Positions 61,553 to 61,621 of a DNA stretch of 64,000 nucleotides are shown one piece after another. Every line of letters starts with the position of its first letter. The first letter of the stretch is position 1. Location: assembly GCA_037310415.1 (NCBI GenBank), contig CP147780.1:704001-768000 (forward strand), in the 5' to 3' direction. The position numbers and the translations under genes are program-made. The notes under the pieces were generated by a model, which was not told the DNA's origin, did not search any database, and worked only from the letters and a program-made list of their open reading frames with translations. This stretch comes from Candidatus Atabeyarchaeum deiterrae. GTDB lineage: Archaea > Asgardarchaeota > Atabeyarchaeia > Atabeyarchaeales > Atabeyarchaeaceae.

Positions 61553-61621
61553 CAAGTGATGAAACGACGGTCTGCGTGAGCGCCACGCGGCGTGATGATG
61601 AGGCGTACAGCAACTGATCTT
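61553..61621 (+). ncRNA. double-guide box C/D sRNA; predicted targets in LSU rRNA A-loop and H93
   Basis: C GTGATGA 61556-62; D' GTGA 61576-79; GCGCC-ACGC-GGCGT linker hairpin; C' ATGATGA 61595-601; D CTGA 61614-17; 13- and 12-nt guides. Confidence 0.8.

Follow-up and report, generated by a model that had tools for sequence, protein, structure and literature searches.

The locus lies in an intergenic spacer in the genome of an Asgard archaeon (G000), which was assembled as a single contig of 2,756,679 bases with one 16S-23S unit and an estimated completeness of 97%. "The window" denotes the whole stretch of 64,000 nucleotides that was analyzed, and positions refer to it unless stated otherwise. 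Two further genomes (G001 and G002) are the other members of the class (f1, n = 3), to which a class-wide search added no further member. The spacer is flanked by an open reading frame (ORF) for a repeat protein (59414-61129) on one side and by pyrG, encoding CTP synthase (61777-63483), on the other. No ORF of at least 40 aa is present on either strand of the region considered here, which is thus intergenic, and C/D boxes are absent from its reverse strand. The features of the predicted sRNA gene are as follows.

61517-61530, + strand: conserved A/T-rich box GAUAAGCUUAAGUU, 26 to 39 nt upstream of the C box, with invariant columns in the three-genome alignment
61553-61621, + strand: whole predicted box C/D sRNA gene, recognized by its motifs and kept in G001 and G002; ends approximate
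61556-61617, + strand: core of the sRNA, from C box to D box
61556-61562, + strand: C box GUGAUGA (AUGAGGA and AUGAUGU in the relatives)
61563-61575, + strand: D' spacer of 13 nt, AACGACGGUCUGC (12 nt in G002)
61564-61574, + strand: D' guide ACGACGGUCUG, with 10 Watson-Crick pairs and 1 G-U pair to native 23S rRNA positions 2718-2728, UAGACCGUCGU (E. coli 2586-2596, 5' strand of helix 93 [H93])
61576-61579, + strand: variant D' box GUGA (UUGA and GGGA in the relatives; only GA conserved)
61580-61593, + strand: hairpin linker GCGCC-ACGC-GGCGU, with a 5-bp stem (GCGCC/GGCGU) and the loop ACGC; stem kept in 3/3 genomes
61595-61601, + strand: C' box AUGAUGA, aligned with GUGAUGA in G001 and GUGACGA in G002, giving a 12-nt D spacer
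61602-61613, + strand: D spacer of 12 nt, GGCGUACAGCAA, between the C' and D boxes
61602-61611, + strand: D guide GGCGUACAGC, with 10 of 10 Watson-Crick pairs to native 23S rRNA positions 2682-2691, GCUGUACGCC (E. coli 2550-2559, A-loop)
61614-61617, + strand: D box CUGA, invariant in the relatives

The C, C' and D boxes and the hairpin linker that the earlier note had read from the window are all found on the + strand. The C box (RUGAUGA) and D box (CUGA), the spacers of ~12 nt, the complementarity to rRNA, the conservation and the presence of the partner proteins place the element in the archaeal box C/D sRNA class. In the internal C'/D' motif the C' box follows the consensus, the D' box GUGA is non-consensus and the 5-bp stem is conserved; across the three genomes the stem shows one change from G-U to G-C, and the loop varies (ACGC, GCGC or UAGA). 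With such a hairpin the C'/D' motif would have the canonical stem of a complete kink-turn and would not be a K-loop. An overlapping GUGAUGA at 61592-61598 was also considered as the C' box and was ruled out by the alignment with the relatives, which selects AUGAUGA at 61595-61601 instead. Beyond the linker hairpin there is no global fold (z of +0.55; the minimum free energy [MFE] does not surpass that of shuffled sequences), in keeping with a guide RNA, and neither a BHB-like nor a terminal stem enclosing the sRNA was found (z of -0.17). Rfam gave no match at gathering thresholds in the whole window; at permissive E values the best sub-threshold matches at the locus are archaeal C/D families, namely, sR3 (15.8 bits, threshold 41), sR18 and sR19. 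The sRNA belongs to no curated Pyrococcus or Sulfolobus family of Rfam and resembles them in class architecture only. Such a failure is expected for lineage-specific sRNAs, yet it counts as a failed formal test.

The A/T-rich box GAUAAGCUUAAGUU is probably a BRE/TATA promoter element. The sRNA of G001 likewise precedes pyrG, at a distance of ~400 nt, and in G002 the sRNA block is conserved although pyrG is not downstream. The earlier note had described the sRNA as standing in tandem with a first one; this arrangement is not conserved, the homologue of the neighboring element (61389-61467) lying ~1.8 kb from the sRNA homologue in G001, and the sRNA has its own conserved A/T-rich upstream box, apart from its neighbor.

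Several other observations were made in the surroundings of the gene. The neighboring C/D-like sRNA (61389-61467, + strand) is 81 to 85% conserved in another Asgard family (G028 and G037, f18) and in G001. The spacer between the sRNA and pyrG (61622-61760, + strand) has a stable multibranch fold (-38 kcal/mol, z of -3.27, 0/200 shuffles as good), and its DNA is also kept in G002, which has no pyrG downstream of it. Within this spacer, CCGUCGUU (61644-61651) is the exact complement of AACGACGG (61563-61570) of the sRNA and mimics its 23S target. The upstream 571-aa ORF (59414-61129, + strand) apparently consists of tandem repeats of ~156 nt each; another frame of it holds a ladder of ORFs of 48 to 49 aa (starts at 60084, 60240, 60393, 60549, 60705 and 60861), and Pfam gives the 571-aa ORF weak matches only, which are probably spurious.

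Pairing of the guides was assessed against the native 23S rRNA of the organism (G000:C1:462549-465663) and not against a consensus; domain V of this rRNA aligns to that of E. coli rrlH without indels over E. coli positions 2543-2612, with an offset of 132. All 10 nucleotides of the D guide form Watson-Crick pairs with the A-loop, a better match than the earlier note had assumed. A native 23S rRNA that does not pair would have refuted the note, and this outcome did not occur. The single U-U mismatch that the note reported was an artefact of the consensus and disappears on the native 23S rRNA because the lineage has A at the position of E. coli 2555 and the guide carries the matching U. The D guide thus fits the organism's own rRNA better than it fits the universal consensus. 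The proposed register, with the +5 base on U2552, was borne out as well: A61609, the fifth nucleotide upstream of box D, faces native U2684, which corresponds to E. coli U2552. Chance pairing was evaluated with 200,000 shuffles per guide, scored for at least 10 contiguous Watson-Crick pairs covering the N+5 position anywhere in the 16S and 23S rRNAs. The frequencies were 0.008 for the D guide and 0.016 for the D' guide, or ~1e-4 jointly, before counting the closeness of the two targets, which are 37 nt apart in the native 23S rRNA. A chance origin of the guide pairing is unlikely. With regard to position 2555 of the A-loop itself (native 2687, G000:C1:465235; loci L027-L056), A is found in place of the usual U in this class, in family f3, in part of family f12 and in G011, G093 and G103; the other Asgard genomes keep U.

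The 11-nt pairing of the D' guide with H93 that the earlier note had proposed is present, with 10 Watson-Crick pairs and 1 G-U pair; the methylated nucleotide that it had named first, A2589 (C2590 with a shifted register), is obtained by strict N+5 counting, and the relatives lean to C2590. When counted from the conserved GA that is anchored by the linker stem, strict N+5 falls on A2721 (E. coli A2589) for both G000 and G001. In G002, with its 12-nt D' spacer, N+5 is C2590, and in G001 the D' duplex is down to 9 bp and starts only at +4. The predicted D' target is accordingly uncertain by one nucleotide, with roughly even odds for A2589 and C2590, and the comparison with the relatives makes us lean to C2590.

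We give a little less than even weight to the reading that the same sRNA aims its D' guide at C2722 (E. coli C2590) and not at A2589. On this view one nucleotide in the D' box of G000 would bulge out, giving the box as C(G)UGA and restoring its C-G pair with position 6 of the C' box. The 12-nt spacer of G002 places N+5 on C2590. So do sRNAs from two other families, f2 (4/4 genomes) and f7 (1 genome), in which CGACGGUCU-N recurs as the core of the guide; after it come a D' box of canonical sequence, CUGA, the linker GC-NNNN-GC and the C' box AUGAGGA. The spacing of Um2921 and Cm2959 in yeast, 38 nt, equals that of native U2684 and C2722, and a +6 exception is known among Dictyostelium snoRNAs (PMC8817022). 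However, the strict count from the stem-anchored GA gives A2589 in both G000 and G001, and the bulge is an ad hoc assumption that, if made for G002 as well, would move its site to C2591.

Two further observations concern the D' guide and its target region. A second CGACGGTCTGCTGA site in G000 (G000:C1:2069473) has no box context and was judged to be a chance occurrence. An insert of ~98 nt interrupts the 23S rRNA of G001 (L052, G001:C1:457612-457889) immediately behind GACCGUCGUGAGAC; it lies in H93, close to E. coli 2601 and a few nucleotides downstream of the D' guide target. This insert is probably an rRNA intron, and many other Asgard 23S matches break near the same positions.

The whole spacer is 72% identical in G002; in G001, identity is 77% over query 211-334 (window 61500-61623), the stretch that spans the sRNA. 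In the three-way alignment both guide cores (ACGACGGUC and GCGUACAGC), the linker stem, the D box and the GA dinucleotides of all boxes are invariant; D guide positions +1 and +2, the hairpin loop and the flanks vary. A covariance model (R1) of the three sequences matches each class genome exactly once (3/3) and none of the 148 others among the 151 Asgard genomes searched. An exact-pattern scan of metagenomes with GCGTACAGCNNCTGATC returned at least 120 loci; none of those listed has an upstream C' box, so all of them look like chance matches.

This pattern of conservation bears on whether the D' half guides a methylation at all. If only the D half did so, the D' half might be a pairing chaperone that holds H92 and H93 of the peptidyl-transferase center together during assembly, or a decaying remnant, and some of its features would fit: its box varies (GUGA, UUGA and GGGA), its spacer is 13 or 12 nt long, its duplex in G001 is just 9 bp and begins at +4, and the targeting of two nearby sites by one sRNA is already known and has been suggested to help rRNA fold (PMC4644070). 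We nevertheless consider this unlikely. The guide core ACGACGGUC is invariant in the three genomes amid flanking DNA that is 72 to 77% identical and is therefore under selection, the D' GA and the linker stem of the predicted kink-turn are invariant too, and canonical versions of the D' guide occur in f2 and f7.

The proteins of the sRNP are encoded in the same genome. L7Ae is encoded elsewhere in G000 (105 bits), and the other two are found in the window.

32172-32840, - strand: fibrillarin, the methyltransferase of the sRNP (span of the Pfam match; PF01269, 326 bits; G000:C1:736172-736840)
33013-33693, - strand: Nop5, the scaffold protein of the sRNP (span of the Nop domain; PF01798, 245 bits; G000:C1:737013-737693)

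The earlier note had suggested looking for rlmE, and no RlmE/FtsJ orthologue was found in the single-contig genome with PF01728, TIGR00438 or tblastn. The best PF01728 matches were rejected as RlmE, being an RsmB/Nop2-type m5C methyltransferase and an FkbM-family methyltransferase. TIGR00438 scored at most 29 bits in G000, over the SAM motif alone, and an Asgard RlmE searched against the genome by tblastn gave E values of 0.087 or worse. The lineage appears to have lost the protein enzyme that usually modifies U2552.

The occurrence of RlmE was surveyed in 151 sampled Asgard genomes with TIGR00438 at an E value of 1e-15 or below. It was detected in 129 of them (scores of 101 to 257 bits) and was missing from three families: f1 (0/3), f16 (0/5) and f19 (0/7). 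Guides directed at U2552 were searched for with a pattern of three parts: either a C or a C' box, then 12 nt of spacer containing an A-loop complement that puts U2552 at N+5, and last an NNGA box. Outside f1 and f16 the bare pattern GCGWACAGNNNCTGA occurred at about the control rate, with flanks lacking boxes, and therefore the pattern that includes the boxes was used. Matches were obtained in 3/3 genomes of f1, 4/5 of f16 and 6/7 of f19, and in just one of the 129 RlmE-positive genomes (G009, from family f8); the reversed-pattern control gave 4 matches. Guide and target covary, with A2555 and a guide U in f1, and U2555 and a guide A in f16, f19 and G009.

The A-loop guide of f16 and f19 occupies the D' position in C/D sRNAs unrelated to the one at 61553-61621. 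Those of f16 (L073, L074, L093 and L094) couple it with a D guide, GGGAAGAGCC, directed at GGCUCUUCCC (about E. coli 2508-2517). In those of f19 (L098-L101, L103 and L113) the D' box is usually GCGA, with GUGA in G089. G009 (L108) has both RlmE and a U2552-guide sRNA, the D' box of which is AGGA. The complementary, either/or distribution of RlmE and U2552 guides is the strongest functional argument that genome comparison provides, and it rests on three lineages, within which kin are not independent.

We conclude that 61553-61621 is very probably a genuine, unannotated and independently transcribed box C/D sRNA gene of ~66 nt, whose product would guide methylation of two 23S rRNA nucleotides in the catalytic center of the ribosome. 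That the motifs arose by chance in the spacer, or belong to another transcript without serving as guides (for example, the pyrG leader or the 3' UTR of the upstream repeat-protein gene), is highly improbable: the boxes are short and shuffled sequences fold as well by MFE, but the joint shuffle frequency is ~1e-4 even before target proximity is considered, the conservation pattern is that expected for a C/D sRNA, the guide matches the lineage-specific A-loop variant, the distribution is complementary to that of RlmE, and the block persists in G002 without a pyrG downstream.

Four metatranscriptome or soil runs gave zero coverage of the locus, which speaks neither for nor against expression. We infer that the sRNA gene is transcribed, that its product assembles into an sRNP and that the methylations take place, in the following manner. 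L7Ae would recognize two sites, the C/D motif at the ends of the RNA and the internal C'/D' kink-turn closed by the 5-bp hairpin, and the sRNP would be completed by Nop5 and fibrillarin. Pairing of the D guide with the A-loop (helix 92) of nascent 23S rRNA would place U2684 opposite the fifth nucleotide upstream of box D, and fibrillarin would form Um2552, taking over the job of the stand-alone RlmE/RrmJ, which is absent from the class. The D' guide would pair with the 5' strand of H93, 37 nt downstream of the A-loop site, and direct a second 2'-O-methylation, to A2589 under strict N+5 or, should the additional nucleotide ahead of the D' GA bulge out, to C2590.

A wider scenario, which we regard as possible but doubtful, is that f1, f16 and f19 each lost RlmE and came to cover U2552 via unrelated scaffolds, and that in f1 the A-loop guide was installed, as D guide, on an older Asgard sRNA with a D' guide for C2590, which all eukaryotes methylate with U35/snR73. 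If true, this would provide a natural series of cases in which an RNA guide replaced a protein enzyme. Asgard archaea are the closest prokaryotic relatives of eukaryotes. The scenario, if true, would also point to RNA guidance in their Asgard relatives for the A-loop and H93 methylations that snoRNAs direct in eukaryotes.

Among the Asgard sRNAs, those of f2 and f7 (L249 and L252-L255) share the 5' half of the sRNA at 61553-61621, that is, the C box, a guide with ..CGACGGUCU.., a D' box, a short linker closed by GC and a UGAGGA/UGAUGA-type C' box, and are possibly homologous to it in this half. They differ in that their D' box is a canonical CUGA, their linker stem has 2 bp and not 5, their D guide has no A-loop match and their genomes keep RlmE; model R1 does not reach them at an E value of 0.01 or below.

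Um2552 in the A-loop is among the most conserved rRNA modifications. E. coli lacking it shows slower growth and slower protein synthesis, as reported by Caldas (2000) in the form cited in PMC7994747. Establishing by which route each lineage obtains Um2552 completes the rRNA modification map of the Asgard archaea, and the clean RlmE-or-guide pattern across 151 genomes offers a testable case in which a protein enzyme was exchanged for an RNA guide. In the literature we found no published catalogue of Asgard C/D sRNAs, and the paper describing the Atabeyarchaeia makes no mention of sRNAs (PMC11291895).

The individual RNA is an ordinary example of a well-known class. RNA-guided formation of Um2552 is already documented in other archaea, and the sRNA at 61553-61621 is not new in kind. 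An sRNA-guided U2552 was predicted in five archaeal species studied by Dennis et al. (2015), with guides such as Sulfolobus acidocaldarius sR7 and Nanoarchaeum equitans sR10 (PMC4644070). The class, the machinery and the A-loop target at N+5 are alike, and sR10 of N. equitans, too, combines an A-loop target with one at the base of H93, U2880 in their alignment, which corresponds to E. coli C2606 (PMC4644070). There is no sequence homology with sR7 or sR10 beyond the boxes and the guide, and the second targets differ (2589/2590 here versus 2606 in N. equitans sR10). The sRNA described here is further set apart from sR7 and sR10 by its C'/D' motif closed by a 5-bp hairpin, its A2555-adapted guide and its Asgard host. 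The RlmE/RrmJ/FtsJ enzyme (TIGR00438, PF01728) makes the same product, Um2552 in the A-loop, as a stand-alone protein without a guide RNA, unlike the sRNA.

In yeast, Um2921 is formed under the guidance of snR52 and Gm2922 is formed by Spb1 (PMC5199042). Um2921 of the 25S rRNA is the equivalent of U2552 and is snoRNA guided. By position, C2590 corresponds to Cm2959 of yeast 25S rRNA (snR73) and to the sites of human U35 and Arabidopsis AtU35; the D' guide touches a site that is methylated throughout the eukaryotes. The likeness to yeast snR52 and snR73 and to human U35 is one of position. Whereas eukaryotes employ two separate snoRNAs along with the RlmE relative Spb1, in this archaeon a single sRNA carries both guides, with no RlmE relative at its side.
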